DNA from: Harriotta raleighana
Taxonomy: Eukaryota
DNA length: 64,000 nucleotides
Reading direction: 5' to 3'
Assembly (NCBI GenBank): GCA_050575255.1
Contig: JBNZDD010013730.1
Coordinates: 5,820,015 to 5,884,014 of the forward strand
Position numbers and translations under genes: made by a program. The notes under the pieces are model-generated. The model was not told the DNA's origin. It ran no database searches and saw nothing but the letters and a program-made list of their open reading frames with translations. Numbering within the stretch: position 1 is the first letter of the stretch; each line of letters begins with the position of its first letter. Below, piece by piece: positions 403 through 63,349 of this stretch.

Positions 403-2819
403 ACTTCCTTAATTACTTATTAGTGAACAGACTGTGTACCACAAGTTGCAGAGCATGAGTTTGTCTAATTTAGCCTATGATTACTGTCTAATATCAGTCA
501 AATGCCTGGGGATGTATTGAGTGAAGGTGACACAATTCTGTACCTCAAGCACTGAAGCAAACTTGCTTGTAGAGTTGACTGCAGTGATGAGGGAGCCTAA
601 AAATAAGCAAAATAGAAGAAATCCTTTTTTTGTGCTTAAAACACAGAACTGATAACAATCGAACACTAGAACAATAAAGAAAGTCAAACACAAGTTTGAA
701 TCAATCTGGAGTGCATTATGCAAAGTGCTTATTTCAATCAGAGATTTGACCTTGGTCAGCAATGCTATACATCGTGTATAACCAATTAAGGAAGTTGGCT
801 CATAATGTAATGCCAGAAAGTTAATGAGACTTTGGTAACCCTTATACTTGGGTGTAATTTATTCCTCAAACAAAGTGCTTACAAAGTAAACGGACTTGAA
901 TAAGAACGCTTGGGTCATAACAAGGCTATGTTTCATAAATGTAAAACCAGCTGTATTGTTGCATCTGTTTCCATTATGTTCTGTGGGACTATCAGCTTCA
1001 CATGCTCAAAATGTGACAAGGTCATACTGGTTAATGTGTACAAATTTGTAACGTCCTTTTTGGCCCAATGGGAAACAAAATTGATAAGGTTGTAGATTGC
1101 TTTAGGTCGCAAGTTCCTCGTGTCCTGGTGATGTAATCAATTTAGTTTTTAGGAACACTTGCTGATAAGCTGCAGTACTCACTGAGTACCAAAACTACTC
1201 TTTTTCCTTCACCGTGTCATGTACCAGGAAAACATCTGGACCTCAAAGCCCCAATCTTTATTTCCTCTCAGTCCTCTATTTTGCTTGCTTTAATAAGTAA
1301 CATTGTACCGTAGCTTCAGGATCTGCCTCGGCCCTTAATTGTTTTCTAAACAATATGGCATGGAACAGCTTTAAAAGATTACAGTTTGGAAATAACATGT
1401 GCTACGATTTCAATTTTCGACACAAAAGCTTCTGGTGTCTTGCACGTGACCCATCTTCCCATAAGGTAGAAGAATGTTGCCTGTAATCGTGTGATCATAA
1501 TGCCGCTCAGAAAGGCGAGCTTTGGATAAATTTTCTCTAAACCAGCTTTCAATCCTTTTCTTCAAATTGTGAACTATACACCGTTACGAAATCTCAACAT
1601 GGTTGCCCTCGTCTATTTGCCACAAAAGGAATATTTATTTCCAATACAAGCTAATAAAATTGACTCACTCTCAAACTGTGCACGTATGTCCCATTTATCA
1701 AATGCATGGACCACAGGATTAAAATTAAATGAGATTCATCTATTTACTTTGGATTAACAAGCACATTCTTCTGATGTACGTAAAACTATGCTCTTCAGAG
1801 TTTCCGCAACGTGCATCACTGGTCCTTTCAACACTGCGGTTGAAACTTACTACAGTATTATTATTTTTAGAATTCTTAAAATTGAGATTAACTGTCCTTT
1901 CAATTGGAACAACGGATATTTGTAGATCAGGGGGCGTCACATGGCAATCAGGACAAGTCACCAGGAATGATTGTCCTCGCTCAATAATACTGCCCCAGTT
2001 CACAAATATCTAGCTCAGCAAAGATTAGGAATCCAGCCTGGAAAGTTCGCATTCTAAACAGTTAAGCTACTCGCTGGTTAAACCTCTGAGAGCTTGAGGT
2101 TGAAATTGCTGGATTTGGTGTGGAGGCCTTGGTTAGTTTACCATCCCAAGCTCAAGGGTGTTGAGGCCAGTTGTTGAACTCTTATCACTGCTTTGGCTGA
2201 AAATAGCGACAATAGTAGAGACTATGTACTGAACCTGTGACTATCCTGCCCTAAAGAACAGCTTCGGATCATTTGATGAGTGTGTCCACAACGTTATCAA
2301 AATAATCTGTTCTAAAAAGAAAAGAAAATGATTCGCTTTTTTTTATTTTTTTTTACACACACAATAACAAAAAGCTATACTCCTTTAAGGCAGTAATACT
2401 ATCTCTGGGTTCCGCTGATATTTGTAAAGCACTCAGATTTCACGGTCGTGGTTCATGACAGTAGAAGCCCTCAATTAAATTCCAGCATTGTAAGTCATTG
2501 CTCACTATCTATTATCATCTTACATTTAATATAAGAATTTGAATTCCAATTTCACTGACCACAAGATCAATATTTCACACTTACCAGTGCCAGGAATAAT
2601 ACACGTGTGAGAAAATGAAATGAATCGTACTACAGCAGATTGGAATGACAGGCTCTTCCCAACTATTTCCAACCAGTGGTTCCGCTGGGAGCAAATGATT
2701 ATTATTTGGGTGCCCAAATTATTCTTATTTTAAAAAAATTTGAAGGGATTGTTACAAATAGAAAAGTGATCTGCCAATTGACTGATAACCGGATTCCTAC
2801 TTACTGCTAGGTAAACAGG

Positions 2820-2915
2820 AATGTGTGGAGGAAGGAAACTTGTCCAATGTTTCACCCTGCCCAGGAATCAAACCCAGATACTCTCGCTTGTGAATGCTCT
2901 AACCACGAGTTACAT
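2820..2915 (-). mobile_element. tRNA-derived SINE head fragment
   Basis: ATGTGTGGAGGAAGGAAACTTGTCCAATGTTTCACCCTGCCCAGGAATCAAACCCAGATACTCTCGC...GCTCTAACCAC aligns with the head of the copy at 25290-25393. Confidence 0.75.
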
Positions 2916-6110: not shown

Positions 6111-8905
6111 TGCTTAAGCTGAGTAAATCCAGATCCCATGGAAATCTTTCTCCAGCAGAGTTCAGACCACGCACGTTTCTTCTTTTATTTTTCCTCTCAT
6201 TTACATTACTGGACAAAGTACTGCTTATTTTACAATGAATGAAATGTGGTGTGCAGTGTGTACCATAAGACAGAAAGGAGTTTACAATCCTCAATTACTT
6301 TGGAGTTGACATCATTGAATGATGAGGTTTTTCAAACCAAGGAAAAATAAAGTACACCCAGAAGCCGCTTAACCTCCAGTGCACGATTTAGGTGAACTGT
6401 ATTCATCATCAATTGAAGTTTGAGAACAGAAATCCCTTGTGAATTCCGATATGCAACATTGCATTAACCACATTATGGGAATTTTTTGTTGAAGGTAATC
6501 AAAAGAGATTGTAGAAGTATATGTACATTACCACAGTGTTATTTAACTCCTATAATTTATACACAGCACGTAGTCTTATGGTATGTTGTACATCAAACGC
6601 AGCTACTAACATTTGTATTTTACTCATAGTTCCACTTAAAGTATTGCTCTAATCATATTCAGATTTCTACTCATATTCTTTTAATTTTCTTTGCATCGAG
6701 TCCCAATTTTTGTTTGTTTTACTCTTTTCAGTGATACTGTGCATCTCAGTGATTGGAGCACTCCTAACCCATGAAGAATTATGGCAGTAGTTTTAGCATA
6801 TTGCATCTTTGTTTAGAAGCTTTCCATGCATTAAAAAAATACAGAGTAAAACACTGCAATTCCCTAGTATCGCTTTACTGATTCAGCAAAGACCTGAAGG
6901 AGTAGAATGTGAATACAATATAGAAGTTTTCCTGGCCGCAGTGCAATTCATCGATCTGTACAAATCCTTGCCTCCTGAGTGCATCCTCCTCACGAAAATA
7001 TGCTAGCAGTGAACTGGAAGGTGATGTTGGAAGAAATGCAGCTGATTGATTCAGACTGGATGACTTTCTAGCCTATGAACCCATTTCTTTTCGGATATTC
7101 TTCTGCTAAACGCGTTTCAAAATGTAACAGACAACCATATTTCATGTACTGTACTTTACTTTCCTGCAAATATTCACAATGCAAGCTTTCCACCTGTACC
7201 CAACACGTTTGTGAACAAATTGTGCCACTGACAGATGAGTAAAGGTTCTTTGACTCGAGAGTACTGCAGTTTGAATTTATTTTCCTTAAAATGATGTTGA
7301 CAGAATACTTTTAGCAGATACTTAGTGGGTGTAAGGAGTAAAGGAGAATACAGTGCTCTGTGATTTCTTCCCACCCAGCACCAGATGGAATCCAGCTGTT
7401 ACAGTAAGGCATTCAAGTGTCTTGGTATTTGAACTTCTACACTTGTAAAAGGCTTTCTGTACACGATAATTATTTGGGAATGTTTGCGCACTTCTCAGTC
7501 GCAGTGATACTGAGATTAGCTGTGCCCAGCTACCATTTGTGTTAATGACTATTCGAATAACACAAAATCTGGATCATCACAGGTCACGGGAAATGATAAA
7601 CTAACAATTGACCATCACATAATCACAACACTCGATTCTGTGTAAGTGACTGCACTGATAATTAAATCTGAGGAGATCAGTCTTTTAAATATTCACTGCA
7701 TAACACTGTGGAGAAGGGTGAGTACCAACTCACACTAACACCCCAAGATAAGGATGATGTTAAAGGAGTTGAATCCCTGTCATTGAATAGGGTGCTAAAA
7801 AAATTTGAACATGAAAAATGAATTTTCAAAAGGCTTATTATTAAACAGAACGGAATAGCAAATGCAGGTTCATGAAATCCATGCCCCGATTTTTGCTCTC
7901 AGTTGTGTGAAAAATATAATTGGTTATTGCCTTATACCTATCCGATTCTTTTTGCTTTGAGACGTCCCCCCAATGTCAAAGGCACTATGTCATAGTAAAT
8001 TGTAAATTCTATTGTATAGATCCCCAAAGAGATGTTCAGTGGCAGGGCTGCCACTGGTGACTTGTTTCTGTGGGAGAGGATGCAAAATAAAATTTAGAAA
8101 TTCACCAAACAGGATTTCAAAAAGAGTAACAGATGCTTAGAGCTGAACAGAAAGAACTTTCGAAAGAAAAGACAATCACATCTATAGAGCAGAGCCAAGT
8201 GCTGACTAAGCGATCTTGGGTCGGTTGGGAGCTGAAGCTTTCAAAGACCTAATTGCATCACTGCACGCGATCTTTTAATATTAGACTTACATTTTAGCCA
8301 AAGAAGCAATAAATAATATCACAGACTATTATGTATTAATGCTGAAAGCCTGTTAGAGATGGACCAAAAACCCAAAGCTGATAAAAATATATGTCAACAT
8401 TTAATGTTACACCTGATGGAGTTTTTTTGTGTTAGCAAATCCAACGGTATCCTAATGAGGTGTATTTAAGGTTATCCCAATGCACCCTACTCAAAGTTAC
8501 CTTGTTGCAGTGTAAAATGTAATCGAGCGAGCAGAATCGTTATCCATTACTCCAAACTACAATTCTATCCCTCCTTCTCAGGGTGGTATCAATATAAAAG
8601 CATAGGAGAGAACAGTCATGATGAAAGCCATTGAGGAAAAGCAGGTTTGCTTGGTGTTAAATGTTTGGGACCACAGTACAGTATGTGCCAAAGCAAACAG
8701 ACCATCGCATCCTATTTACTGATGTTGCCCAAATTTCAGATCATGAGAGCCTTGGTGTTTCAAAAGCCATTCCATACCATCAGAAAACAAATATAAGACC
8801 AACCTATAACAATCCTGAGAACCTTCCTCATGACACATCAGGTGACAGTCAGACCACTTTACTCAGTCTTGGGTCTTAATACATAGAGACATCTGTACAC
8901 ACAGA

Positions 8906-9222
8906 ATTCAACATCATTACAATCTCCCTTCCTTATATAAGAATAGAAGTCTATTTTATCTACACAGATAGTACATACAGTATACAGTATATGAATCCTA
9001 CCGATTGATTTGAGCAGTGTAAATGGAATATCAAAATTCAGCTAATTTCATTTGAACAAGGGCTTACAGTATTCAACATCATTACAACCTCCCTTCCTTA
9101 TATAAGAGAATAGAAGTGTATTTTATCTATGTACATAGTACATATATATATATGAATCCTATCGATTGACTTGAGCAGTGTAAATGGAATATTAAAATGT
9201 AGCTAATTTCATTTGAACAAGG
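8906..9222. repeat. Diverged tandem duplication, 165-bp period
   Basis: ATTCAACATCATTACAA...CATTTGAACAAGG occurs at 8906-9061 and 9071-9222 with substitutions and small indels, and no N gap between copies. Confidence 0.95.
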
Positions 9223-14476: not shown

Positions 14477-14770
14477 GGAGTCCTGTAGCTCAGTGGTTAG
14501 AACATTTGCCTTGCAAGCGAGAGACATGGCAGGGCAAAACGTTGGACCAGTTTCCTTACTCCAAGTGTCTGATAATAATTGCTCAAGAATAAAAATAAAA
14601 TAATAATTTGGTAACTCAATTCACAACTGTTTGTGGGACATTGCTGTGCGCAATTGGCTGCCATGTTTCTCCCATAGACATACAGTCAATTCACTTTACA
14701 GTATATTCTGTGAAACATTTTGAGACATCTGGAAGAAAAGTGCTCTATCAAATGCAAGGATTATTATTAT
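14477..14770 (+). mobile_element. Near full-length tRNA-derived SINE with B-box region deleted
   Basis: Head GGAGTCCTGTAGCTCAGTGGTTAGAAC (Pol III A-box); body CTGTTTGTGGGACATTGCTGTGCGCAATTGGCTGCC; tail ATCAAATGCAAGGATTATTATT shared with about ten other copies in the window. Confidence 0.92.
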
Positions 14771-16104
14771 TTTTACTGGATTATAATAAAGTCCTTCTGG
14801 TCCATGTCACAAACGTTTCAGATTTGCCAACTGGTCTATTGGTGGTTGTTGTAAATGTCACTATGGCTCATGTTGGCAAGTGCATTCTCCAGTGCTGGTA
14901 ACACAATTCCAAGCATTGCTTATTCTTCACACTATTGCTGGAATTCTTTTCTGCTGAATCGTTTTTTTTTAAAAAGAAAAAGTTGTGCTGTCTCAACTTT
15001 GAATCTGAGCTGATGACCGTATTAAACAACTTGCACAATCTACATTTAAACAAGGAACTCAATTTTTTTGGGGGGTAAAAAACATCTCGATAATACAAGG
15101 CAAGTGTAGTACATCATCCGGGGATTCTGAACGCAGCAACATATTTTTTTTTTTTTTAAATAAAAGTTTATTTTTGTTTCAATACAGCTTTTTGAGAATT
15201 GCAGTTAAAAGTCAATTCAGGAAAATCCATTTCTGTTTCCACATTCGCGTTAACCGACACACGCACAAGATGAAAAAGTGGAATTGGAAAAATAATGGCT
15301 GGAAAATTACAAAGACACACTGAATTGCAACTCAGACATTGATTTGGACAAACGTGGTTGTTGGCTTTTTGAAAACCGGGGGTGGGCGGGCGAGGAGGAA
15401 AGGAAACATACATTTAACTGGAAGTTCATGTCACTTTCTTTTATTTTGGCAGACCACAGCCAGCAAGGAAACTCATTTGCTGTTGCATTTCTGATATCAG
15501 TCCATTTTCCCGGAATTTGTCTTGCCTCAGGATTTAGAAAATCTGCTCATAATTTGACAGACTTCGTTCTTTGAAAGAGTCTGGGAAAGGAGAGTAAAGA
15601 CTCCCTGCACAGAAGCTGGTAAACCAACGTAATGTGATCTGCTGTCTGAAATGTGACTATAGGGACAAAACAGAGCATTGCCCCATTCACCCTGTCTGTA
15701 GGATGCACAATAAATCACATTTTCTGCTGTTCAAAACGACATGTCAAGGGAAAGTACCCTTGCTTGGTTTACTCTCAGTAACAGTATTTACTACTCTCAG
15801 GTACATCTCAGGTCAGTCACCTGCAGTATTCAATCGGTAGCTTGGTGCAATTTCTTCTCATCTTTGTGTGCTACCAGCAACCAGGGACAATTTGTGAGAC
15901 ATCTGTCCTTTTTACTGTCATCTCGAGCTGCATCCTATAGTTGCATTGCTTACCAAAACAAAACCGAAGAAAAAGTAGCTGTACATCGCTAGACTATTCC
16001 AAAGCCTATCCTAGGTTTTCACCAAATAATCAGGTCAGTGTCGATCAGTGGAAATGTGTCCTGAGAAGCTGCATTTCGTCTGCATATAGTTATCTCACTT
16101 CAGA

Positions 16105-16200
16105 ACCTTAACAGCTGCCAGGGGAAGGAATCTTTCATCCCATCTGTCTGGACTTGATTTGAACTTTAGTTCCAGAGAAGCAAGGACAGGTGCAACCAGC
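16105..16200 (-). mobile_element. Ancient tRNA-SINE head relic, LF-SINE-like
   Basis: Minus strand reads ...GTTCAAATCAAGTCCAGACAGATGGGATGAAAG...GGCAGCTGT (B-box plus downstream segment); a related relic lies at about 32290-32360. Family assignment is from memory. Confidence 0.4.
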
Positions 16201-17029
16201 CCGTCCCACAGAATATCTCATTTAAATGTAAATGTCTTCTCTATCCTGAACAGGAAATAGCAGATCCATCCACACAGCACACACATTGCACAAATCTTTT
16301 ATATCTGAATAAAATTAGAGAAAAACAGCATTGTCTCACTGCTATTCACATCTCCGTTCTCGAGGGCCAGCTGAGATCAGGAAATGGCATTAAAAACACT
16401 CCTTTTTCTGTGGTTTGGGATATAGATAGTGTCTAGTCATAACTTAGTCTACTGTGCATTCATGGGATTTATCTTATTTTTCTGGGAGTGACTGAAGCTC
16501 ACTTTCAGATGATAGTGGAGCGGAAGGAGAGGGGGAATGTGAAACAGGTCTGTGTTTGCTCAACAGAGATAACAGCTAGGCCACTAGAGTTGCAGGAGGT
16601 TGCAGAGATAGGGGTGAGGATGAAAATGTTGAATTCAAAGTTAGTACTCGTACATATTCAAAAACAGGCTTTGTTGCCAACAATAGAAAGTACATACAGT
16701 TGTAAATATACTGTTAAACAGCTGTACACAATATAGGGGAAATAAAATTGGCGGAAATCCAACTTTCACAACCTTGGACAGATGCAGCAACACTTAAACA
16801 CCATCGCTTGACTTACACCAATTAAACTCAATCTACCTCACCGATGAGTTATACTTAACCTGCCCAGGCATGAAGTCGCACTCCATGTTTCAGATGTAAC
16901 CAGCACTCAGTGTGAGAGGCTCATTTCCTTTGATCATATATATTCTTCACTCCTGTGCCCACACCTGTTCACCTAACCAAGAGAGAGTTTGATTTAGCAG
17001 CTAAGGAAGTTGACTCTCACCTGCAAAAC

Positions 17030-17395
17030 TCTTCACTCACAAGCACTGACTGGTCTGAACTCCTCCAACCCCACTCCTTGGTTTGCCTTCTCTTTTCAGC
17101 TTATAAAGGCTTGCCGTCCTGCCAGTCTCGCCCCATCATTGGTAGCCAAGCTTTCTGACTCTACACCCCTTTACTCCCAGAACTCCAAACATCAACCCCT
17201 CAGTGTCTCCTCCACTCTGTATCCACAGTCAAGTCTCACCTATGATCACATCCACTTTCCCCTGCTCGGTGTCTGCCCCACCACTTCCAAGATACAGTAT
17301 TACTCTTCACAAAGGGTATAATATAAATACAACAACAAATTACATTTGCATAGCCCCTTTCACATCGAGTGGATGTCCCAAGATGCTGAAACAAA
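17030..17395. mobile_element. Very decayed C-rich L2-like fragment (+) followed by an L2 3' tail (-)
   Basis: C/T-rich segment typical of L2 3' regions; 17330-17392 ACAACAACAAATTACATTTGCATAGCCCCTTTCAC...GATGTCCCAAG matches the tail at 49161. Confidence 0.5.
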
Positions 17396-18320
17396 TATAA
17401 ATTGTTATTGACCATAACCCATTCAAATTGTCTGCACTAGATCCAGTACAATACAAAAATAGACTCTTCTATTTGTAGATTGTAAACAGAATCAATACAT
17501 AAATATCTATTTAGGAGAAATTGGTACATGAGTTTTGGTCTGGGAATGTGGTGACAGATTTACACCAAAAATTCAGTAAATTTGGCAGCAAGTAGGTAGC
17601 ATGAAGCCTGTGATGTTGTCATTTGCTATTTTTACTAGTTGAATATAACATTAAAACAAAAAACACCCAACAGAACCAAATTAAAATCATATTTAAGATC
17701 ACTGAAATAGATACACTACTTGATTAAGTTTTAATCAGGAGTCATCTTTTACAGAGAAATGCAAAGGAAATAATCCAAATACACATTACTCAATCCCTTG
17801 CCATCACAAGTACAAAGTAAAAGTTCATCAGTCTTTGAAATGCACAATCAGTTGCTTTGATCACCAGACGTAATCCCTTGGTCAATGCAAGAAGTGGCCA
17901 TTTTGTGACTAATTAGCCCATGATTTCATTAATAATAGTATTGTGGAGTTAAGGCAAACTGGGATTGCACTCCAAAAACACATTTTACAAGACTTTCATT
18001 TTCCTTTTCCCTCCCCAGGCACTCACACTGACAGAAACATTCACACACAAACATGTTAAAGAACTGGAAATTTAATAATATCTTCCACAATTTAGATTAA
18101 AAAAAATATGAATGATCATTTCAGCCGAGGAAGGAAAAATAATGTTTATTAGCATCAATCAAGAATATTTTTGAACTTTGGAACTCATTACAGTATTTCC
18201 TTTGGATCTAGATTTCTATCTTCTCTTTAAATCCCTTTATGCTATATTAATATTTAATGACATGAAAATGCATGCTAACAATTACAGCCAGTCAAAGTAA
18301 TAGGAATGGCCTTAGAGCGG

Positions 18321-18605
18321 CAACAATAATAAGAGCTTTTCATTTAAGGCAGATGTCCCAAGGTCCTGGACAGTTAGGGATCCACATCCGAGCTGGTGGT
18401 TCGAATCAGGAGGGGTGGAGAGGGTAAGGGAAGGAGGATGACTGAAGGCGCACACAAAGAGGAAGTTCTTGAGACAGGTCTTACAGGAAACAAGGGAGGG
18501 GGCGAGGTGGAGGGACTGTGTGATGGTGTTCCAGAGGAATGGGCTGAAAGCCTGCCCGCCAATGGTGGGGCAGGCATTTCATGTGGTGGGGTGGAGCAGC
18601 TGGAG
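18321..18605 (-). mobile_element. L2 LINE 3' fragment
   Basis: Purine-rich on + strand (GTTCTTGAGACAGGTCTT...GTTCCAGAGG...GCTGAAAGCC); reverse complement resembles 63770-64000. Confidence 0.8.
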
Positions 18606-19095
18606 CAATAAACAAGGTAAACGGGAAAGGATGTTAGGGTACATTACAAAATCAGTTGTATTCAGATTTTCAGAATTGCTACTCGGGCTGTACAGTGCTC
18701 TGGTTAGGTTACACCTGGAGTCCTCAGTATAGTGTTGTCACTACGAAACCAGTTGACTGCCGAGACCTTGCAGGCAGTGCAGAAGAGAACAGAGATGATC
18801 CCTAATGTTAAAGTAATAAGCTAAGAACAAAAATACGACAGGCTAGGTTCTCCAATCTTTAAAGGATATGTCTCAAAGGGGTCTTTATACAGATATAAGA
18901 TTTTAAATAGGATTGAGAAAGTAAATCCAGCATAATACTTTCGGATGCACCATGACAACAGAACAATAGGACAAAGGTTTAGGGTTGCAAAGAGCATTTC
19001 TAAGAAAGACACCAGGAAAAATGTCTTTACTCAGGGTAATTAAATCTAGAACAAATTACTAGGAAGGGTATTTGAACTTAGAAGGTTGAACTCAT
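18606..19095 (+). mobile_element. CR1 LINE ORF2 C-terminal fragment
   Basis: Translation RMLGYITKSV...LLLGLYSALVRLHLE matches the CR1 motif LY.ALVRPHLEY; continues with frameshifts and stops. Confidence 0.88.
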
Positions 19096-28170: not shown

Positions 28171-28218
<48 letters not shown>

Positions 28219-34828: not shown

Positions 34829-34829
34829 T

Positions 34830-42245: not shown

Positions 42246-42458
42246 CAGGCAGTCCTCAAGTTACGTCAGGGTTAGCTTCCTGAGATGTGGTGTAAGTCAA
42301 ATTTGTATGTAAGTCGAGTCACCCCCCTATAATGCTTTCAGTAACACACAGTGATTGGTTGTAGTGTCGTAACTTCGAGACTTTGGATGTAACTCGGACG
42401 TAATTTTACCGATATTAAGCGTCGCAACTTCGGAACGTCGTAACTTGAGGACTGCCTG
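42246..42458. mobile_element. MITE of the Tc1/mariner superfamily (Tigger/pogo-like), 213 bp
   Basis: Perfect 20-bp terminal inverted repeats CAGGCAGTCCTCAAGTTACG / CGTAACTTGAGGACTGCCTG, TA target duplication at 42244-45 and 42459-60, no ORF. Confidence 0.95.
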
Positions 42459-43670: not shown

Positions 43671-43717
43671 TACACACACACACACACACACACACATGCA
43701 CACACACACCCACGCAC
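43671..43717. repeat. (CA)n microsatellite
   Basis: Direct inspection. Confidence 0.9.
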
Positions 43718-45499: not shown

Positions 45500-45603
45500 A
45501 TCCATTTTCGCCCACAAAAAACAGTCCATTCGACAGTGTGAAGCACTTTGAGACTTCTTAATTATGTGATAAAGCGCCATGTCAAATATGAGGATTATTA
45601 TTA
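45500..45603 (+). mobile_element. SINE 3' fragment
   Basis: TTTCGCCCACAAA...GTGAAGCACTTTGAGAC...AAAGCGCCATGTCAAATATGAGGATTATTATT. Confidence 0.8.
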
Positions 45604-46831
45604 TAATCCCAACACACACACTGGGCACCGAAGCCTTGCTCTTGTCAACCTGTATCTGTATTCTGGGATCAGGTACAAAGGGTGTATTTTTCTGGGAAAC
45701 GAATATGCACTATGACAAATAGGATCCATACATATGTATGGGGATGGGTTTCACATGTATCAGATATCTGGCTGCTCCTCAAAAAATCCAGCCCTGAGCT
45801 ACAGTGTCGAATAAAACAATATAGGTATTTGATTGTGGCAATCAGAGAATAAACCCACATGATGTCAACGTATGGAGCGCAGAAACGCCATTTCAGCAAT
45901 TCAGAGCCTCTATTGATAAATTCAACATCTTAAGAGTGAACAGTAGCATGTGCATCAAGAAATCCAAGTACAGAAAGATGATGTTGTAGCTTCCCAGTAT
46001 ACACATGATCCACAGCAGAGTTCCAACCCACGTATACTGGGCCAGGTAGTGTGTAAAAGTTTCCAAACAATAACAGATCCTGTTAAGCTTTTTTTTTTTT
46101 TGCGCGGCAGCCATTTTCTAACACTTAAAAGTGTCCAAAGTGGATTAATTAAGGAGTAATGAAGTGCAGGTGTGCAATATTAGTGATTAATGTAGCCAGC
46201 GTTTAGCTCACCCCATGCCGACAGAACGGCTAATCTTGAGAAGCTATTTATAATGGCCTTGTTCTTTTCTCATTAGTGTGCTTTTTGACAGTGCTGGAAG
46301 ATGAAGCATTTCTTGCATACTAAGCACCTGTACATCAGGTAGCGCACAGGTCATCCCACAGACAAGGGACCCCTGTTTCACTCTGACAAGTAAATCCCGC
46401 GGATCAAACCCTCCTCCTCCCACCTGCAAGTCTACGATATATATATTTGTTAAGAATGAATATTGACGTTTGTAAACACTTTAAGACATGTTTGAAATGA
46501 AGCAATAGTTCACATAAAATATTTAATAAACACTCCAACAATAATCCAAAGTATCGTATTAAACAACAAATAAATTGTGGTTTAGGAGCTCAGTCAGATT
46601 TGGAGTAAATGAGCTCAAGTCTCAGGGTAAATATCAATGTTATTACCAGGCTATGTTTAATACCCTGTGCTCTCCATTCCTGTCTCCGAAGCTGCTATTC
46701 TGTTTTGCAAAAGGTGTTAAAATTGTGCAATAATTTCTCTTAAAGGAGCAGAACAGTGTTTATTTTGTGTTGAAACAAACCTTGGGTTTTGGCCCTAAAA
46801 AATTCGGACCTCAGAAGTGGATGGTGTTGAG

Positions 46832-46955
46832 ATAATCATAATAATCCTTCCATTTGATATACATAGTGCCTGATCAAATCTTTGAGATATCTCAGAAGTG
46901 CTTCATAGAAAGTGTAAAGTGTAAAGTGAATTGACTGCTTATTTTGTAGGCAAAA
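46832..46955 (-). mobile_element. SINE 3' fragment
   Basis: ATAATAATCCTTCCATTTGATAT...GTAAAGTGAATTGACTG. Confidence 0.8.
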
Positions 46956-49160
46956 CACCAAAAGAACAAAGCTGCAAAACAACATACAAGCAAATCTGTT
47001 CATAATGCTTTCTGTCAGTGGACAATTTGAAATGGAAACAGTATGACAAATAAAGAAATTTCAAGATGTACAAACTGATTTGAGCAGCAGCTGATTTGAA
47101 TGTTTTTACAGAGATAATTTTGGTATTCTCTTTTTTTAAAAAAAAAAGCTGTTAAATATCCATCAGCTGTAACTATCAGCCTTTGCAGACATCATGTGTT
47201 AAATGATTTCATACTGCTCCTTTATTAGTTACTTACCGGTCTTTGGTATCTGCCCTATAGGCTCAGCTGTTCAGGCTTTCCTTTCTTGACATGTCCCTTT
47301 CTCTAATTAAAGCTTCCATTTCTTATGCTGTACAGAGAAGCCTTTCCCCGGCATCTCCTCTCTCCCCTGTATTTTTAATATATTACAGCTTTGTTCATTA
47401 GCAACGTGAAAAGGCTCACGGCATGGGGTGCCCAATGTGATCTCAACTCTTACTCCTGACCATCTGGCTGGGGAAGCCCACAACATCAATTTCAGGGTCA
47501 TTTATAATTGGTGCTTTAAAACACATATATTTTACTGCTGGCTTCCGCACACTTGAAATTAAAAAAAATTCCTTTCTCCAGATGGCTCAGTAAGCAAAGC
47601 CATTTCTTGGTGTGAAATGCAAACTCCAAAAGCTTCAATTGCTGATCTGTGCTGGACAACAGTTAGGATGCAAACAACAACAACAACAAAATTACAGTTA
47701 CTTTCACGTTGGGAGGCACAAAAGGAAATGATCAGGATGATCACTGTCCACTGGATCTACCCTGGAAAGTGCACATGTGTGAACATGAGTGAGGACAGCT
47801 TCTGGGTTGTCTGTGACTTCCTCAATGGTCTATTGCCCTCCTGTACTGATTGCCTCGACTGGCACATAAAAAAGATCAATTTTGGGAGAAACCAGAGGCC
47901 ATCCATCAATTATTTGAGCAATGGAGCTGCACCCCAGCATGATTCAGTGTGGGGGAGTAGCGGGAATTCAGAAACAAACCGAGTTATTGTATTTTCACAA
48001 AATGTTTCAGCGACGAGCAAAAAAAAAAGTTTTTTTCGGAAATAAAATCTAACAAAGTTGTGCTTTTCTAATGCAGTGAAAACGAAAGGTTAATGCGGAA
48101 CAAAGCAACCAGTCAAATCTCTTTTCAGAAGTGGATTAAAACCCTTGCTCATCCATTATAATGACTTCCATATTGCACATACCAAAGCTTTTCCCACCAG
48201 CACACCGTACACTCAGTGTGCTTGTTAAAAAAAAATGAAAAAGGTGAGGCTGGACTCAGAGGACAAAACAATGCAAACTGATTGAGCTCCAAATCTGAAA
48301 GGAAAATAAACACATAAAATATGAGAGAACTGCAAAGATTGAAATAACTTAATGGGTAAATAAGCATTACGTGAGGATCTTGATGGTTGAAGGAAGAAGC
48401 AGGCTTGTGGTTGGAGGCACTGGAAATCCATATATTAAGGATCTTGATATAGTGCTAGTAATACAGCTGTTTGGTGTTTTCTCAAGGGCACGTATGATGT
48501 TTGATCACCAAAAAAACACAAGGAAAAAAAAGGCATCATTTGTTATTGGTTGCCTGCTGCATGTGCCATGGTTTAAGATTGCATGGGGGAGCTGCCCTAG
48601 TTTTACTCTTATTATTTTCAGGGAAATAAGATTCTTCTCATCAATCCTACAGTATGGCTGAAATATTATAAAGGTGCTTTGTTGGTACTTACGATGCATT
48701 TGACTTGACTCCTCATGCGCTAGAATTAATATATTTTCATTTTGCTGTTCAGCAGATTTCCATATCTGATTGAGACGCTCACAAGAGTTTCAGATCGATA
48801 TCTTGTATCAAAAATGTGGATTATAAAGGTGAGGAGATTTAGGCCATGTATATAAAAAACACATAAATGGTTCATGTGAAGAAGCATCACATATGAATAA
48901 GCATTAAAAAAATCCATTGGTGGATGTAAATCAACAGGAATTTTTTTTAAAAATGTGGACAGCAATTTGAGAAACTTTCTTTTGAAAGTTGCTTACTCCT
49001 TTTATAAAAGAGTGGGATTATTTGTTCACCTATCAAAACTAGTGCTAGTTCCCCAACCTGGAGCTTTCTGCAAGCCCTTTTAAGTAACTATCCAAGACCC
49101 TTTTATATGATGTTGTGGACTTGATTCTACCATTTTTGGTAAAAGATTCCATATTCTCAT

Positions 49161-49230
49161 AACAACAACAACAAAATTACACTTGTATAGCGCCTTTCAC
49201 ATGGGGAGGACGTCCCAAAGTGCTGAACAG
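49161..49230 (-). mobile_element. L2-type 3' tail stub
   Basis: (AAC)n...CTTGTATAGCGCCTTTCAC...GGACGTCCCAAAGTGCT. Confidence 0.8.
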
Positions 49231-49339
49231 TCACTTCATAGTAAAATTCTGTGAAGTGTATTTTCTCTCCAACTATGTAAATGTGAATCTTGTACATCCC
49301 CAATTTGTACTTTTTATTTCTGGTAAATCGTTAATTATG

Positions 49340-49850
49340 TTAACCATAACAACTAGCATTTACTGTATATAGCATTCTCCATGGTGGGCGCAGTCCCAGA
49401 GCACTTAATGATGGTGAAGCTTGATGCCGAGCCAGGGGGAAGAGGATATAGGGATGGCCAAAGAGGAAGCTTTTCTGGTGCAACTTGAAAACGGGGAAGG
49501 AGGCAGTTCCATAGCTTTGGGGAATAGTGGCTGAAGGCATGGCCGCCGTTGGTGGAGCAGAGGATTTGAGGGTAAAGGAGAAGGTTGGAGCCAGCAGCGC
49601 GGAGGCAGTGGGTAGTGCTGTGAGGAAATTCGAGAGGTGGTGCCCAGGCATGGAGGGATTTAAACACTGAAGTGAGAATCTTGAAGTCAATCTGCTCTGT
49701 GACAGTGAGGCAGTGGAGGTGGCAAGGACTGGGGTAATCGGAGTGTGGGTTTAGTGCGGGTGAGAATGTGGGTGGTGGAGGTTTGAATGAGTTGAATATT
49801 GTGAATGGTGGAGGAGTGGGGACCAGCAAGGAGGGCATTTGAGTACTACT
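49340..49850 (-). mobile_element. L2 LINE 3' fragment (ORF2 C-terminus and tail)
   Basis: Translation LHCLTVTEQIDFKILTSVFKSLHAWAP...AFSHYSPKLWNCL matches L2 motifs LHWLP..RI.FK.L...FK.L.G.AP and AFS..AP.LWN.LP. Confidence 0.9.
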
Positions 49851-51196
49851 CATGAGTTAAATACTCATTTTTGAGATAATATTACTTTATTTACTTTATG
49901 AAAACCATTCATAGTTTTGAAAACCTCAATTTGATACTCATTTGTTTGTTGTTGCAGAGAATCAGTTCCACCAGCAAACTAATCTGGAGTTAGTTTACTT
50001 CTCCCATGGTTGAACATAGATCCAAGATGGTTCTTGTATTTGTAACACAAGAGAGGGATCGTTGTCTAATTTTAACTGAAGGTCTCATGTATTATTGATA
50101 ATTACACTGCAGCATCATTGCGAGTATCTGATTTAACAAGGAATGTGAAAATCAGAATGATTCTTGCTCAGAACGTGCAAATTTGCCAAGTAGCTGTTGA
50201 TGTTGTTATCTATCAGCAAAGAGGGACATGGACAAAATGCAATCACCCCATGTGCAGTACCACTCTTGAAATAATGCAGATCACGGTACGATATTTGCTA
50301 ATACTATAATTCTTGAGGAGAACACTCACATTCTGCATGTAGCAGTTCACAAAGCAGGGATTTTGTCCACACCAATTTAATTGTATGCCTGCATTGTCCA
50401 CTTTACATTAAACTGATTAATATACTGTGATTTCTACTTCATTCTTGTCTAAAAATCATAAAATATTATCAAATGCCCACTGCATGATTGTCATATTTAA
50501 TTTGAGCAACTGCTGTTTCTTATTCAGGCAGCATAACATAGAACTGACAAAGTGTGAAGCATTGGTTGCCTGTACTGGTGGAAAGAGAGACGTAACTGAA
50601 AACATGTAATCCAGTCTTCCGATGAAGACCACTGAGCAATGAATTCTCAAATGCATTTTGTAAGAGAATGAAAAAGCATTGATTGAAAGCTGAGTCATAT
50701 AATCACACCTCAGTTTTTTATTTTTGATTAAATGTTTTGATTTCAAGGATATTCTTTGCATTTTCCTTTTGTAAAATGTCTGGAACCCCACACCTTTGTC
50801 ACATTCAATTTGAAGTTTTATTTTAATTATATTCACTTCAGTTTTGAATAGAAGAGTTAGGAAGAGCTGAACAGAAGAGAACAAACACAACTGAAACTTC
50901 TGGAAATTGACAATAGGTCTCTTAAATGTTAGTTGAAGGCCATTCGCTCCATTGTATAAACTGGTTATCTGGATGTAACAAAGCAATACAATTGTACATG
51001 TTAGAAGACAATTCCTCCACACTGAGGTAAAAGATTCATGTCCCAGAAGTAGTGGTAAATTCATAATTTGTTTGTGTAGAGATAAAATGCTCAAACTCTG
51101 AAACATCCTCCAGAATAATGGAAATGAATGTCAATTGATTGACCAGCCATTAAGATCATTCCTCCTGTTGGTCAATACTGGCAAGACACTTCCAGG

Positions 51197-51545
51197 AAAT
51201 AATAATCCTTGCATTTCATAAAACACCCATTCACTTTGGTGGATGTCTCAAAGTGCTTCACAAGATATACTGTAAAATGGTGTGACTGTGAGCATTTGGT
51301 GCAAATGTGACAGCCAGTATGCACACAACAATAATAATAATCCTTGCAATTGATAGAGCACTTTTCACATCTTCTAGACGTCTCAAAGCGCTTCACAGAA
51401 TATACTGTAAAGTGAATTACCTGTATATTTGTGGGCGAAATGCGGCAGCCAATTGCGCACAGCAGTGTCCCACAAACAGTCGTGGATTGAAATGACCAAT
51501 TTATTATAGGTTTTTTTTCAGGGATTATTATTAGGCGTGTGGAGC
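51197..51545 (-). mobile_element. Two adjacent SINE copies (older 51197-51327, younger 51328-51545)
   Basis: Two AATAATAATCCTTGCA tails; the second is close to the copy at 26873 and retains many CpGs. Confidence 0.92.
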
Positions 51546-51715
51546 GGAGTTACAAAGGGTGAGGTTAAAGAGGCTGAAGGCCTGACCACCGATGGAGAGG
51601 CATGCGGACATGAGACATCGAGCAGGTCGCAGCCTGCTGAGTGCAGGGAGAGTACCAGTTGATGTAGGGTCAGTAGGTCACAGACATAGGAAGGAGCAAG
51701 GCTACGGAGAGCCTT
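51546..51715 (-). mobile_element. L2 ORF2 C-terminal fragment
   Basis: Translation ALRSLAPSYVCDLLTLHQ...LHSAG resembles LAPSYLSDLL.PY.P.R.LRS. Confidence 0.75.
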
Positions 51716-54700
51716 TTTTCTACCAAAGCAGAAAAGCATGCACCAGTCTGGCTCAATTGGTAGCTCTCTCTTTAGAAGATTGTGGGTTTAACCCTCACCT
51801 TTCCCAACCTCCAAATCGGGGCTTCAAACTCGCTGTCCCACAAAACAAATCCAAACAGTTCAGAAAGTTGCAGCTTTTCAAATATTTGCCTGGGCTGAGT
51901 TAACCCATGACAGTCATGGCCACAATTGGATTGCTTGTGATCTTAGAGAGGGAGGCGGGGGGGGAGGGGGGAGGGTGGAAAACGCAGCGCTGGTTCCCAC
52001 TAGAAATCACTCTCCAGTTACTCACACCGCTCGTCTTACTTTATGTTCAGCAATCGCTTAAAAGTCNTCACTCTCCAGTTACTCACACCGCTCGTCTTAC
52101 TTTATGTTCAGCAATCGTCATCAACGATAAAAGTTATCAACAAATGTGGTGGAATTAAAGGCAGCCCCTACCATAACATGCACTGACAAAATAAATTTCA
52201 AATGGGTGTAGATATTGTGACAAAGATGACCGACTTAATATTAGGTGCCAAGAGAATGAATATTTTAATGCCGGAAAGAATTTAGATCTTTCTCGTAGAT
52301 TTATGCCAATTCTCTACATTCGGGCACCCGGCGGTTGGTGAGAGTTGAACAGTGCACAGGTTGTGTTAATTAGCTGTTGCTTCCTGTGTGTACAGTGTTT
52401 AGGTGAGGCAGACTGAAGCTGGGATGCTTCATTGCTGGCTGTTCAGCTGTCTGCATGAGAAGTGGAAATCCTTGCGATGTATGTGAAAGGCAAACTGAGA
52501 GGGTGGAGGCTGAGAAAGAAAGGAACACAGATAGCGAGAGAAAATAAAGGCTGACCAAAAAAAATAAAGTGAGAAAGGGGAGAAAAAAGAAGGAGGCCCA
52601 AGAAAGATGTGGTGAAACAGTTAGAAAGAGCCAGAAAGAAAAACTAGGCATTTTGGCTAATTGACTGTCTTGCTCATCTTGTTAAATTGTACCATTCGCA
52701 GTTGGTTAAAGACACAAAGAGATGATTGTACTCCTAGTTTGTTATTCCTTGTTACAGGATTTATTTAATTGATGTGTAACACCAACAACATCCCGAGGAG
52801 TGAAGGATCACTCGCACCCCAATAGCGTTTATTAAAGAAAACTTTTTTGACGCATATTTTATTTATTGTTTTTAACGTTCAACTGAAAACTGCAAAATGC
52901 ACGATTTCTTTTCCTGCTTAATAATCAGTTCAGAATGAAACAGGTCAGTATGTAAATCCTGTTAGTAGGCTGGCAATGGATACGCTTTCCATTGTGATTT
53001 ACAAAGGTTATTTTATTTCTGTCTTTTATGATGTTTAGTTTCATGGCAGCAACTAACTGCCTGTAATAAAACTAGCTGTCTGTGGAACTTATTTATTTTG
53101 GAAAATAAAGTACAATCTGCAGATAATGAGTTTTTAATTATACAGTATGCTGGCGTTTTGAAAGCAATTGAACGTTTTTTTAAAAAGCAGTTAATGGAAA
53201 CATAACAATTTACCATGGTGGCTGACACGAGACTTAATGATTCCAAATTATCACTGAACTCACGGTCTTATTTATTTGGGAGAATATCATTTTTTTTAAA
53301 AAGATAAGAGATGAGAGAATAAAAATTATGAATTTAAGGTTTTGTGATTCAGTTCACATGCAGGCAAGTTGCTGGGTTGAACTTTTGTAGAAAGTAATCT
53401 AAGTTTAAAATTAGCCTTTTGAAATACTAATCTTTTGTTTCCACAACTTCTTCCTATGTGTACAGTCGAGTTTCTGTGGTCTATAATCTGTTCTATATAA
53501 CAAGCAGGTCATCGTAATGCCCCGTGAAACAAATTGAGTAAGATATGTAGCTTAGAGAAACATAATGCTTTGGTATAGTTGCTGATACCTTGTCAAAACA
53601 GTACCAGCCAGAGGTCTAGCAAGTCAAACGGCTGGCAGCTGTCCAGTGCCTTAATCAGGTAACCTTTCTTCATGAGTGAGCCCAGACAATGATGCCAACA
53701 GGCTAAATTGACTTCAGAGATTATCGTAGTCGAGTTCAATCTCCTTCTTCCCCAATGGCAGCCGGACATGGAGCAGAAATCACTGGACAGCAATCGGGAA
53801 CACAAATCGTGGTAGATTTCCCCCTTTAACGGTAAGCTCCAAGCCATTTGGAGAACTCAAATCTTCACCTCAATAAGATAACCGAGAAAGCCAATTTGAT
53901 CATTGAGCTTCTGCTCTGTATAGCTCAATGATATACAGTACATGGTGTTGCCTCAATTGCTAGGCCATTGGGGAAACTATAGTATTCTGTTTTCTGATGG
54001 CTGGAAGGGGTTAGTTCTCAGTGCACTGAATGAAGACTGTCTCAATCCAATTCCCAAATGCATGAGTCAAGAGTATAAAACTACTTTCAATTCAACACAA
54101 ATTACATTCTCAGCTCCAAAAAGCCAAAAGGATGTCTGGTGTGGCGAATGGAAATGTTGCACTTGTCAGTTAAAGGTGATATTCTTAGTTTGGGGTAAAG
54201 GAACATTGCCCGGAGAACCTAGTCACATTCATTCTGTATCCATTCCATCGAAAGTCGGGTGCTGGAGCATTTAATCATTATGCTCAGTGCAAAAAGTAGG
54301 AAAATGTTCTATTCTTCAGAGCGACATCACCTCAACATGAGGAGCACTAAATTGCTCCCAATCTGCCCCACACACACACTTTCCAAGAAACAAATTTAGT
54401 AAAACTAAGCCTTTTTATTTGTCTGGGAATCATTTTAATTTTGCACCTCTTAGTGATGGAAGTGCTTGAATGCCCACATGAATGGTTTGAGTTCAGTCTC
54501 ATTACCATTGTTGTAAGCTGTTCTATGCTGTTCCTGCCATCGTCGGAGTGAGTTTGGTACTTGGCAAGCNACATGAATGGTTTGAGTTCAGTCTCATTAC
54601 CATTGTTGTAAGCTGTTCTAAGCTGTTCCTGCCATCGTTGGAGTGAGTTTGGTACTTNACAATGTTGTAGAGAAAATTGGGTGGAAAATGCACCATAAAA

Positions 54701-57332
54701 ATGCACTGATTCTGAAAGGCTAATAAACATAAGACAATATTCAAGCACACTCACATCTCTGTTATTCAACCCAAGCCTGCTATCACTCACAAACACCATT
54801 GTTTTCTGCCACCAGTCCCAGGAAGAAACAAACTACAGTATCGTTCACCATGTAATATTTAGTCACTGCAACAATCTCCAGTCAGATTTCCAACCAGATA
54901 TTTAGCCAGCTCTTTTTGAAGGAATTAATCAACTCAGCTTCCAAAGCTTTTTCTTGGGAATATTAACACTTTTCAACTTTGAACACTTGTGTGACAACTG
55001 TCAGGAGAGCCTCACAGAATGATTTATTTTTTACTGTCATCTCCAAAGATAGTGGAGAGAGAAGATATTGGCTGCATTCATTTTTCTTCCTGCTTGTAAT
55101 TCCCTTACTTGATCATTTTCCTGACATGCCTACCTGATGTATCTACAATTAATAATATGAGACCTGCCCAGCAACACAAAACATTTCTTAGTTCACAGGT
55201 CTAGAGTCTGGAAGTGGTTTCATATTGTGAAGCTTATAACTCATCTGTAGCTGCGCAACAATCTATCACCGATGCATTGATTTTCATTTTTGGGCTCTCA
55301 AAACGTACTTTAGATAAATAAAGCAACTGTTCAGCCAGTTCAAGCTGTCCTTTTCTCAATGAACTGTGTTTTGACTGTCTTCTTGATAACTTGTCCAAAC
55401 ACCAGACTTCTAAACCAAATTGACACAGGCAAGAATCTTCCTGGACAGCAGAATCTGTCAGTATATTATCGAGCAAAATATTAACGTCCTCCCTCATTTT
55501 TGAAGTTGGTTACCATGTTATTACTTGCAATCATTTTTATTGTAACTGATAACTTGAAATTTGATCACAGTGCTAATCTAAGAAGAGTAGATCGCTTCTT
55601 CCAAATGTCTGAAGCTGCCCTTGAGCCATACTTTATATTTACTGCTTACACCTGCTATGCTGGGGCAAACAAAGAAGGCATTTTTCAATTTTAAATAAAA
55701 GCAGTTAATCAATCTTTTGTTCAGGCCTGGCCTGAGAAACGAACAGGTGATTTGTAGTCAATGTTACACCAAAGTATTTAGCTATGACATTTCGAGGTGC
55801 AAAATGAATGAGAGCATTAAATGAAAGGCCTTCACCCACACAGCTCCACTCTGCAAAGTAAAGAATTAATTAATTTGATACGATCAGTACTCTATATAGC
55901 ACCAGGTTTCATGACAGCTTACTATTTTGCTGCTGCTACACTGCCTGCAGAAAAAGCTTCCGATTCAGTCATACTGTCCATTGGATGCCAGGTAGAGATG
56001 GAAGGCAAATTTGGGAATGAACTAGCTGGTAACTGAGTACAAAGCAGCATAGACTGATAGCCTGAAAGCCACATGGGCTATGTCTTGGCTGAGGAATGGG
56101 GTGGGTGACTCGAGGGAGGGAAAGCAAAATGACGAACACACAAAACAAATTGTGTCACCTCTGGTTGATAGAGTGGGTTAACACACCACTGTTTCACGTC
56201 TTGGATGCAGGTTATTTCTAGCCGAAACACAATGGGATGAAGACCCTTCAATAACAAGCTGTGCATCATCACACACAATCCACCACCACGAACAGTAGTT
56301 GTTTGCATGTTGTCCCCCTCACATCCATTCAAACTGTTGAGAAGGCTGAAATCAAACAATACCTCGCTTCTTGCTTAGTTAAACTTTTTCTGTTTCTTCT
56401 GAGCGCAAATCCACACCCACACCATTAAATTCCTCAAATTGTATTTTTTAAAATATATTGAAAAAGTGCAAAAAGATACCAAAAAAAACTCATGGCCAAT
56501 GCATCTTTAGTGCTGTCACAAACCAAACAGAGTCAAGCCCATGGTGTATAGGAACCTCATTATCTCGCCTGAAAGGAAAGGAAGAAAGAATTTAATGAAA
56601 GAATTCTTCCTCTTTGTGTCATTCAATACTGGCATCCTGTCTTAACAACTGAGCGAATCAGCTCTTGAAACACGAACATTTTTAAATATTAAATGGCCTT
56701 AAAATCAGCAAGCAACTGTCCTCATTTGTCTTGTCAGTTTCAGTCAGGATGGTACATTTTGCTTGCAGTCAGGTATTCAAATCCAGTTGGATTCATGGCT
56801 TACGATAATGCTTAATGTATCCCCTGGGATCCAAGCCAGGATGTGTCAAAGCTAAAATAAAAATTATTGGTCATTGTTAAGTAGATGAACTGTAGTGAGG
56901 TGCAGGAGGTAGGGTATTCATCCCTCGAATAACCTTCCCCAGCATGGCAGAAACAATGTGCAGTGGATGGGTGAAGTTAATTAACAACGTGGCAAGCCAG
57001 ACAGTTAGCACAACAAATGCTGCAACGAGTGCTTTAAGGGTGAGGGTTTGAGGGTTAGTGGTAAATTACATTCAGTCAAAACTTTGACCCTTTGATACAA
57101 GGAACTACAACAAAAAGAGGCACAGAAAAAGAATGTCTTTACAAAGTATCTGCCAGCTTCCCTAATTGCTTCTCACATCAGATATTCACAAGCAGAACTG
57201 AACACTAATTACTGGAGTATTTAAAGCTGTTCTGCTGCACAATGGTCATTTTTCAATAATGACGCATTTTCTGTGACTCACCCTTTAGAAAAATTGCTGG
57301 GATAATTGCTACTGTTTTGCTGAGATTTAAAT

Positions 57333-57393
57333 GACAGGGTGAACTAGATGGAGTGAATGGCGTTTTCCGACTTCTGTGTTCTTTATGTTCTTT
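57333..57393 (+). mobile_element. CR1 3' terminal stub
   Basis: GAACTAGATGGAGTGAATGGCGTTTTCC...TGTTCTTTATGTTCTT. Confidence 0.65.
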
Positions 57394-57945
57394 CAGCAAT
57401 AAAGTGGGTGGGAATGGCATGCCACAATGCCCTAATGTCAGCTCAGACAAGTTACTGTTTTACAATAGGGGTAAAGCTGAGGCTGCCTTACTCATTAGAG
57501 TCCAATTCATTAACCAAAGGTGAGTTAACAATAGTTGAGGTTTGGTCACTGAGTTCTTGTCCTTTGTGAAAATTGTTATTATTTCAGAAGACGTGAGGCC
57601 ATTTGAAATCAGCGGTTGGATTCTGTAATGGTTGTCACAAGGAACAGAGATCCAGCACACTGCTTCAAACACTCTTAGGTGCTTCCATGGTAACAGAAAA
57701 AAATCTCAGATGTATAACCAATGAAGTATGCCACTCAGGAACACTTCCTCTCTGCATTTCCACTGCTCTCCATACATCCAAATTTCCACCATGACCTAAC
57801 TGATCCTTCAGGATAGACTGCTTTTGTGACTGCAACATCAACTTTGACCACATATTAAATCTTCCCCATATGATCGTGACACTAAAAGAGAGTCAAAACT
57901 GCTTGACTCTGAAGGAAAATATCCCAAAGTTGATGCTTTAGCTTC

Positions 57946-58060
57946 AATAACAATAATAATCCTTGTATTTGGTATAGCATCTTATTACATCTTAGAGACA
58001 TCCCAAAGCATTTCACAGAATATACTGTAAAGTGAATTGACTGTATATTTTGTGGGCCAA
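57946..58060 (-). mobile_element. SINE 3' fragment
   Basis: AATAATAATCCTTGTATTTGGTATAGC...CACAGAATATACTGTAAAGTGAATTGACTGTATATTT. Confidence 0.9.
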
Positions 58061-61781: not shown

Positions 61782-61886
61782 CCTCAAAAGTATTCACTTA
61801 GTCATATAAATTTACATGAATCCACATCCCATCCAAAATAGGTAAAAGTCTCCATTGAATGCAGCACCAATGTTGATTGACAGAAA
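61782..61886 (+). repeat. 105-bp dispersed direct repeat, copy 2
   Basis: 94/105 identical to 59934-60038. Confidence 0.95.
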
Positions 61887-63349
61887 AGCTTTGCTTTAGA
61901 GAAACTGAACAAAATTAGCCCAAGGCTGATCTGAATGACTGATTACTAATCAAAATTACGCTTCCATTATAACGTTTCTCAAATGAAAATGAAAAATTTG
62001 AAACTGACGAGAAAAACTAGGAGAATGAAGACTTCTCTTATGGCAAGGATGTTGATGTGATGACAATTTGAATGTGTTGTTTGTGTTCTGTGTATTTTTG
62101 TGTGAGTTGAGTTTGGAGGAGAAGATAAATCAGAACTCTTGGCTAGGCTATCACTCATAAAATTACGTATTAACTACTTGAAAACCCACATATCCAGAAT
62201 AGATTCGTCGATAGCTTTGTAAAGAATGGGGAAAGATTGATTTTCTGATCAAAACATTAACAGGCTTTTATTTTATACTCAAGAGAGTCAAGAATCAAGA
62301 TTTCTGGTAGTATGCCTTTCGATTTGTACTGGAGTTGCACTTGCACTTGGAATTCAGTCAATAAACCTACATGTATTAATGTGTATGAATGTGTTGTTTG
62401 TGTGTGAGTGTGTTGGGTGTGGGGGTGAGAAGGGTGGAACAATCATGCTGTCAAAAACTTCAAGGAACAGCTTTATGACATAGAGTGTTGAGGCTGCAAT
62501 TGCCCACATACTGAGTCCTCATTCTTACCGTGTCACTGTGGGTGCGTCCTCCAGGAGATGGCAGGGACTACCTCACAGACACTGAAAGAAAACAACTTAC
62601 ATTTGTACATAGCCCTTTTTATGCAAAGACATTTCAAAGTGATGGAGGGCAAGCCGCCATGAATCACTCATCTGAATCTCAGAGTGATTCCATTCAGGTT
62701 AGGTTTCCCTCTGGTTATCAATTGAAGGATGTAGCTTTTAACTTGGATGCCTGGAAATTTCGAACATATAATAATAATTACAGTGTCTTTATATTTGGCA
62801 GAGTGCCTTTCATGAATGGATATCTCAAAGTGCTTAAATGGATACATTTTAAATGGTATTGATTGTGTGTTTCAATAGAAGCCAAACAACCAAGTCTGTT
62901 TTGTTTTTAGGCAGAAGTTGATTTACCTAATTTGCTTCCATAGAAGCCTTACAGTAATAAGGTTAAGATAATTACCTTGCAGTAATAAGGAAAAGTAAAT
63001 CTCAGGATGAAATCCAGGATCTCACTCCTACTTACATTTGTCTGTGCTCACTGTGAAGTTTTGAACCATGTAAACGGTGGAAAGACTAATTTATTTCACA
63101 GCAGTTTAGACAGAGGTTGAGTGTCAACTTGAACCTCCATAGTGGGAGATTGGCGCATTGACATTACAGTATAAGGAAGGGAAAATGTTTCTTATTTTAA
63201 AAGCTACAAAAATATAATAGCTGAGTTGTGATACTGTTCAGATGGCCCAGTCCCTTTTATACAATGGATTGTTTAGAAATAATTCCAGCAAGATTTCTAA
63301 TACTTGAGTGTGTGAGATGCAGATGCAAGATATCAATACATAACTGCTC

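Follow-up and report, generated by a model that had tools for sequence, protein, structure and literature searches.

Heptamers in excess across a vertebrate genome as a probable record of excision by Tigger-type transposons

The window analysed here is a stretch of 64 kb of genomic DNA in which the heptamers TACAGTA and TACTGTA together occur 46 times by exact count. The original prediction had put the number at about 45 by eye, ascribed about seven to a SINE and expected about 13 from base composition; these figures hold, since seven heptamers belong to the SINE (six at consensus sites and one in a partial copy at 51268) and the computed expectation is 13.1, and all ten coordinates that it cited are correct. 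The seven window ORFs scanned gave no Pfam match over the cut-off and showed no protein-coding exon. The sole Rfam match is a tRNA-like, SINE-derived head of a SINE copy on the minus strand at 27094-27168 (RF00005, 30.8 bits), and a weak reverse-transcriptase match under the cut-off (E 0.002) at 63225-63692 is likely a piece of a decayed LINE. The features are given below, where B and C denote contigs of two organisms about 93% alike, which were aligned to positions 1600-21599 of the window.

1851, 3494, 6076, 7147, 7400, 8677, 9670, 10742, 11053, 17293, 18189, 19531, 21284, 21358, 27624, 29523, 29831, 30793, 30798, 31250, 33334, 34441, 34523, 36753, 37471, 39578, 41716, 44088, 45220, 48648, 53141, 53934, 54834, 62950 and 63165: the 35 heptamers in unique DNA
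49361: a further heptamer, masked solely since the repeat-library seed was taken from there
14697, 25158, 26942, 34722, 51268, 51403 and 58023 (14697..58029): seven heptamers of the SINE's own sequence, no scars
1851..1857, plus strand: heptamer showing neither length change nor substitution in relative C, the contig-end distances agreeing over 1840-1882
8677..8683, plus strand: scar or, equally, tandem duplication of the adjoining five bases; 5 bp absent in B and C, with the gap at 8673
8976..8989, plus strand: head-to-tail pair of heptamers within copy 1 of a 161-bp tandem duplication, copy 2 having only a TA run
9065..9071, plus strand: junction heptamer of the 161-bp duplication, no scar
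17293..17299, plus strand: scar with cross-species support; relative C lacks exactly 5 bp and keeps a single TA, and there is no tandem duplication
18189..18195, plus strand: scar with cross-species support; relative C (2 contigs) lacks exactly 5 bp
30793..30804, no strand assigned: two overlapping heptamers with one TA in common
42244..42460, no strand assigned: 213-bp non-autonomous element in place, Tigger-like, with TA on both sides and inverted ends (21/26 matching) that start CAGGCAGTCC

The number of heptamers exceeds what the shorter words of the window predict. Markov models of orders 1-4 give expectations of 7.2, 10.7, 13.0 and 15.5 respectively, and order 5 gives 30.0; at orders 1-4 the class ranks third or fourth among 7,454 classes of 7-mer, with only simple repeats above it. 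The control words TACCGTA, TAGAGTA and TACAATA occur 2, 5 and 18 times. After repeat masking, 57,259 bp remain with 35 heptamers against 11.3 expected at order 3 and 12.6 at order 4 (Poisson p of about 1e-8 and 2e-7), and the excess proposed originally therefore persists under a Markov background, masking and control words. From these 35 against 11.3 it follows that about 22-24 of the 46 are in excess; about half of the window's heptamers are likely scars, and the remainder are SINE sequence or chance. Three further heptamers beyond those of the SINE are located within the local 161-bp duplication. About two thirds of the 35 heptamers in unique DNA exceed chance and are likely scars, single sites being assignable only with an orthologue.

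Some sites are more particular. The two heptamers at 8976..8989 are likely two scars in neighbouring TAs, and the overlapping pair at 30793..30804 likely arose when an element inserted at the TA of an older scar and was again excised; the heptamer at 1851 is either an older scar or a chance word. The 161-bp tandem duplication itself spans 8901-9231, and the contig of relative B skips 8880-9069, so that B has one copy of the unit.

The original prediction had a cut-and-paste family jumping repeatedly in and out of this region. Repeated jumping is supported, and its traces are not special to the region. We sampled 140 stretches of 10 kb from the large contigs of the 1.10-Gb vertebrate assembly, making 1.464 Mb with the window. 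This sample contains 998 heptamers, comprising 534 in unique sequence, 214 in the SINE consensus and 89 at surviving Tigger ends, with the others in other repeats or at edges; raw counts overstate scars because of the SINE and Tigger shares. In the masked sample (0.99 Mb) there are 522 heptamers against 168 expected, a 3.1-fold excess, while the other 31 TA-NNN-TA classes lie between 0.75 and 1.42 times expectation; one third of the unique heptamers in the sample are chance. The excess is thus genome-wide, and the window is ordinary in its rate, with 0.61 heptamers per unmasked kb where 138 other 10-kb stretches average 0.52. Footprints of other lengths, sought as words (TACATA, TACGTA, TACTA and cores of 4-5 bases), show no comparable excess (0.8-1.3 times). 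Heptamer density in masked DNA declines as GC rises (Spearman -0.43; 138 sampled stretches).

Whether such words arise by insertion can be read from repeat copies. A first screen of this kind classed 14 of the 998 heptamers, and 2 of 1,690 control words, as insertions of 5 bp, but it was too small alone and several of its cases adjoin the SINE's own word. Among 795 aligned SINE copies, 11 of 67 5-bp insertions made an exact heptamer, and eight of these 11 are not explicable as tandem duplications. The genome-wide test addressed one TA of the abundant SINE that has no local template. Here the clean insertions of CAGTA or CTGTA after TA that the original prediction called for are found: 113 of 143 5-bp insertions read CAG or CTG, alongside 42,081 empty exact copies of the site. 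At a non-TA joint, 0 of 16 were exact and most were local duplications; at a neighbouring TA, 12 of 20 were exact. In the first 100 of the 143 there were 76 exact insertions, and 21 of the remaining 24 were one substitution off by eye. As to length, insertions of 3-9 bp at the tested TA number 144, and of the first 100 of these 72 are exactly 5 bp; orientation is balanced (CAG:CTG = 46:54 in the first 100 of the 113 exact insertions; p = 0.48 against 50:50). Among the insertions listed at this TA, six are of 6 bp; the cores of four read CCTG or TCTG and may represent remnants of four bases or a mixture of left and right ends. A tenfold difference between the two adjacent TAs (113 exact scars against 12) indicates a strong target preference, which is unexplained.

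These insertions are independent events and not one amplified subfamily, since the scar-site copies are star-like: the 30 examined of the 143 have a mutual distance of 0.165-0.169, no closer than the 0.171 of empty copies. Two pairs among the 30 are local duplicates.

These results bear on two explanations that dispense with excision. The heptamers might derive from repeat content and slippage only, that is, from SINE words, surviving ends and local duplications; 303 of the 998 sampled words are indeed SINE consensus or Tigger ends, and three of the 11 exact SINE insertions, like site 8677, also fit tandem duplication. Yet the 3.1-fold excess outlasts masking, only 15 of 534 unique words continue with AAA as Tigger ends do, and the tested SINE TA, devoid of a local template, still yields its 113 of 143, which leaves this explanation very improbable; as a sole cause it is refuted by the masked excess, by the result at the SINE TA and by the 0 of 16 at the non-TA joint. 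Alternatively, selection might keep the word as a binding or microRNA site, TACTGTA being presumably complementary to the seed of miR-101/miR-144. That sequence match stands alone against the lack of strand bias in the window (27 TACAGTA versus 19 TACTGTA, p = 0.30), the origin of the word by insertion within SINE copies in both orientations, and the scan of the seven window ORFs, which turned up no protein-coding exon; we consider selection scarcely credible. The 5-bp insertions are, very probably, excision scars of a CAG-ended element that targets TA.

Comparison with the relatives, which the original prediction had also envisaged, found exactly 5 bp missing at three window sites, of which 8677 also fits slippage. 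Twelve of 140 indels between the window and B or C are listed, and these include three 5-bp gaps, all on heptamers (8677, 17293 and 18189); with 18 heptamers among the 128 TA-NNN-TA words of the stretch, the probability is about 0.003 for all three and about 0.02 for the two clean ones. A fourth listed indel, at 9402, adds 5 bp in C and differs from a scar by one substitution. The evidence at 17293 comes from run X9, run X5 being without depth there, and at 18189 relative B displays no gap, B's differences having been counted in part. Since B and C resemble each other more than the window and share most substitutions, the 5-bp gaps cannot be polarised, and the polarity as insertion derives from the SINE test. 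Locus pairs among the listed indels are of empty versus scar only, none having an element in one species and a scar in the other.

A candidate source is present in the genome. An inverted-repeat scan of the sample recovered elements flanked by TA on either side whose ends start CAGTAAAA, about 30 of them short and three of about 2.5 kb, as well as related CAGG-ended elements, among them the 213-bp miniature element at 42244-42460, which has related ends in two sampled stretches (L069 and L137). The same scan returned long near-perfect inverted duplications at L064 5314-6422, L135 6764-9055, L030 2802-3938 and L096 1418-2097. The three 2.5-kb elements, in the sampled loci L044, L052 and L056, are full-length, with a duplicated TA and CAGTA at the ends, and the first of them was analysed as follows.

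L044 593-3071: full-length Tigger-like element with a TA duplication and inverted ends (21/26 matching)

Its ORF encodes 571 aa from the first Met, with CENP-B_N, HTH_Tnp_Tc5 and DDE_1 all over the Pfam cut-off, and its catalytic triad, chosen by motif, is DD32D. Judged on sequence, L044 would fit Tigger, a family common in mammals, by its TA duplication, short inverted ends, single ORF, domains and a triad within DD29-36D; pogoR shares the domains and an overlapping spacing. The ORF of L044 is uninterrupted though sampled relatives are just 68-83% alike, and it is either a preserved copy or an early domestication. The genome holds 127 DDE_1 profile matches. Inverted repeats flank only four of the 20 best of these (L043-L062), and many of the 20 have open frames of 480-725 aa without inverted repeats nearby; such loci are possibly domesticated TIGD/JRK-like genes or may be truncated.

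Elements of this type also occupy the site at which scars were counted. SINE copies continuing with CAG at the tested TA number 1,164; of the first 100, read by eye, 23 still contain the element, 40 have an exact CAG scar and 8 a decayed one, the others being short variants or unclear; 19 of the 23 elements have ends like those of the families from the inverted-repeat scan. Furthermore, scars and Tigger elements are about equally decayed: Tigger ends diverge by about 10% from the majority sequence (8.5-8.8% without CpG), and the scar core shows decay of about 8% per site (113 of 143 intact across three bases). Flanking preferences in the sample run in the same direction, a purine standing beside TA in 0.64 of unique heptamers, 0.70 of Tigger elements and 0.51 of controls, and A or T two positions from TA in 0.77, 0.93 and 0.69 respectively. 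For the window's 35 sites the purine fraction is 0.74, with no shift two positions away (0.686 versus 0.687).

The original prediction had named Tc1/mariner as the family. A cut-and-paste source with CAG ends stands, but the Tc1 identity probably does not: against 127 DDE_1 matches and a DD32D triad, Tc1/mariner profiles (PF01498, PF13358 and PF01359) gave 0 matches in the genome, with 2-7 candidates scored and one search run without a positive control. The scars could still be real and yet have been left by a Tc1-like family of the Sleeping Beauty type, since vanished or decayed past detection, with Tigger as a bystander; both heptamers are canonical footprints of Sleeping Beauty (bioRxiv 10.1101/659086), and the Tc1 profile searches are weak negatives. 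Against this, the ends of all 23 elements seen in place at the SINE TA are short and either Tigger-like or similar, the inverted-repeat scan yielded Tigger-type families and no other recurrent CAG-ended family, and scar decay agrees with the age of Tigger. We therefore hold a Tc1-like source to be unlikely, and conclude that the excess words include thousands of 5-bp TA insertions whose maker was probably a Tigger (pogo-superfamily) transposase.

Scars outnumber surviving elements by an estimated 3.5-5 to 1. At the SINE TA there are 80-96 scars to the 23 elements, or 3.5-4 to 1, the scar number being estimated because every element shows CAG there and just half of scars do. An independent estimate from the sample is about 5 to 1, from roughly 330-350 excess words and the 133 surviving Tigger ends in 1.464 Mb, which correspond to about 66 elements or 45 per Mb. 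The genome total is estimated at about 2.5-3 x 10^5 exact scars and 5 x 10^4 elements, as extrapolated from large contigs only. The original statement that the family left almost only scars was right that scars are the more numerous, but overstated, given some 45 surviving elements per Mb, one of them in the window (42244-42460). Overlapping heptamer doubles number 9, where 4.1 would be expected (p = 0.025). A near-unit neighbour occurs for 72 of 534 unique heptamers, compared with 9.0% of controls, which are not matched in composition; these figures hint that scars re-attract insertions.

The chemistry of such a scar, that of the Sleeping Beauty-type footprint, is textbook. A Tigger element or short derivative would insert at TA and duplicate it, as the TA on both sides of surviving copies shows. 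By analogy with Sleeping Beauty, the transposase would then cut the element out by a staggered break, leaving CAG on each donor end as a 3-nt overhang, and end-joining over the central mismatch would give CAG or CTG about equally, consistent with the 46:54 observed in the product. Because the ends of the main family begin CAGTA, TA microhomology yields the same product, and may account for its uniformity or assist repair after the cut. The 5-bp scars would finally reach the germline and, to judge from the estimated ratio, be fixed far oftener than elements of 0.2-2.5 kb are retained. As a conjecture, this surplus likely reflects the same copies jumping repeatedly, together with selection that acts less strongly on 5 bp than on kilobases.

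The same microhomology admits a different agent, host repair, which would have removed elements by deletion between the internal TA of a CAGTA end and the far target TA, giving the same 7-mer in either orientation. The product would be identical, as the inverted repeats begin CAGTA, and some scars are lineage-specific, but there is no reason for repair to prefer this 2-bp match to others, nor for 72 of the first 100 insertions to be exactly 5 bp; moreover, removal that went on after the family's death would leave scars clearly younger than elements, and the two are about equally decayed. Host deletion is accordingly quite unlikely. Returning to excision by the transposase, we favour, with some reserve, a broader account: that Tigger jumped in and out several hundred thousand times and was repaired so uniformly that its scar became the most over-represented non-microsatellite 7-mer, about four to one over survivors; that the word count is a meter of vanished cut-and-paste activity and the first record of Tigger germline excision; and that re-attracting scars may seed ACAGT-type microsatellites.

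Repeat annotation tallies only the elements that stayed, whereas here departures can be counted at an identical target site. Departures exceed survivors about four to one, and the activity of DNA transposons in this lineage is therefore underestimated several-fold; most past activity of the Tigger-type family is likely recorded only as scars. Assemblies could now address how often elements are excised relative to being retained in a natural germline, which repair product Tigger leaves, and what share transposon scars have in the spectrum of small insertions and words. There is also a warning for motif finding, in that the heptamer would resemble a regulatory or microRNA site. In the literature listings searched (subscription journals being mostly outside), we found neither a genome-wide record of fixed footprints nor a Tigger footprint, and no Tigger excision assay; these two, the genome-wide fossil record and the Tigger-type footprint, would be what is new here, the footprint chemistry being already known.

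Sleeping Beauty leaves TACAGTA/TACTGTA as canonical footprints, with more than half of footprints non-canonical in cultured-cell assays (bioRxiv 10.1101/659086). The 7-mers here are identical, being TA, three terminal bases and TA; unlike in that assay, however, they are alleles fixed in the germline, the canonical length is seen in 72 of the first 100 listed, and the family at hand is Tigger and not Tc1. Tigger elements of the pogo superfamily have a TA duplication, short inverted ends (8-33 bp) and a single ORF of 300-685 aa encoding CENP-B_N, HTH_Tnp_Tc5 and DDE_1 domains and a DD29-36D triad, and are known from cartilaginous fishes (PMC7386202, PMC9219625); pogoR has the same domains and an overlapping triad spacing (PMC7386202). 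The source element here is like Tigger in its TA duplication, short inverted ends, single ORF and all three domains. The words 'footprint' and 'excision' are absent from the text of PMC9219625. Passer, an active element of the pogo superfamily, likewise targets TA and leaves footprints, of 0-4 bp in a cell assay, but differs from our source element in having a DD35D triad with a Brk DNA-binding domain (PMC9976928). The closest parallel in approach is the comparison of Asian with African rice, where excisions were also inferred by genome comparison of natural alleles: of 94 excisions just 8 were perfect, most having deletions or filler, and mariner insertions exceeded excisions 2.6-2.8 to 1 (PMC4423477). 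In this genome, by contrast, the scars are stereotyped and exceed elements by about 3.5-5 to 1, although the two ratios are not like for like, the rice events being recent polymorphisms and those described here cumulative.
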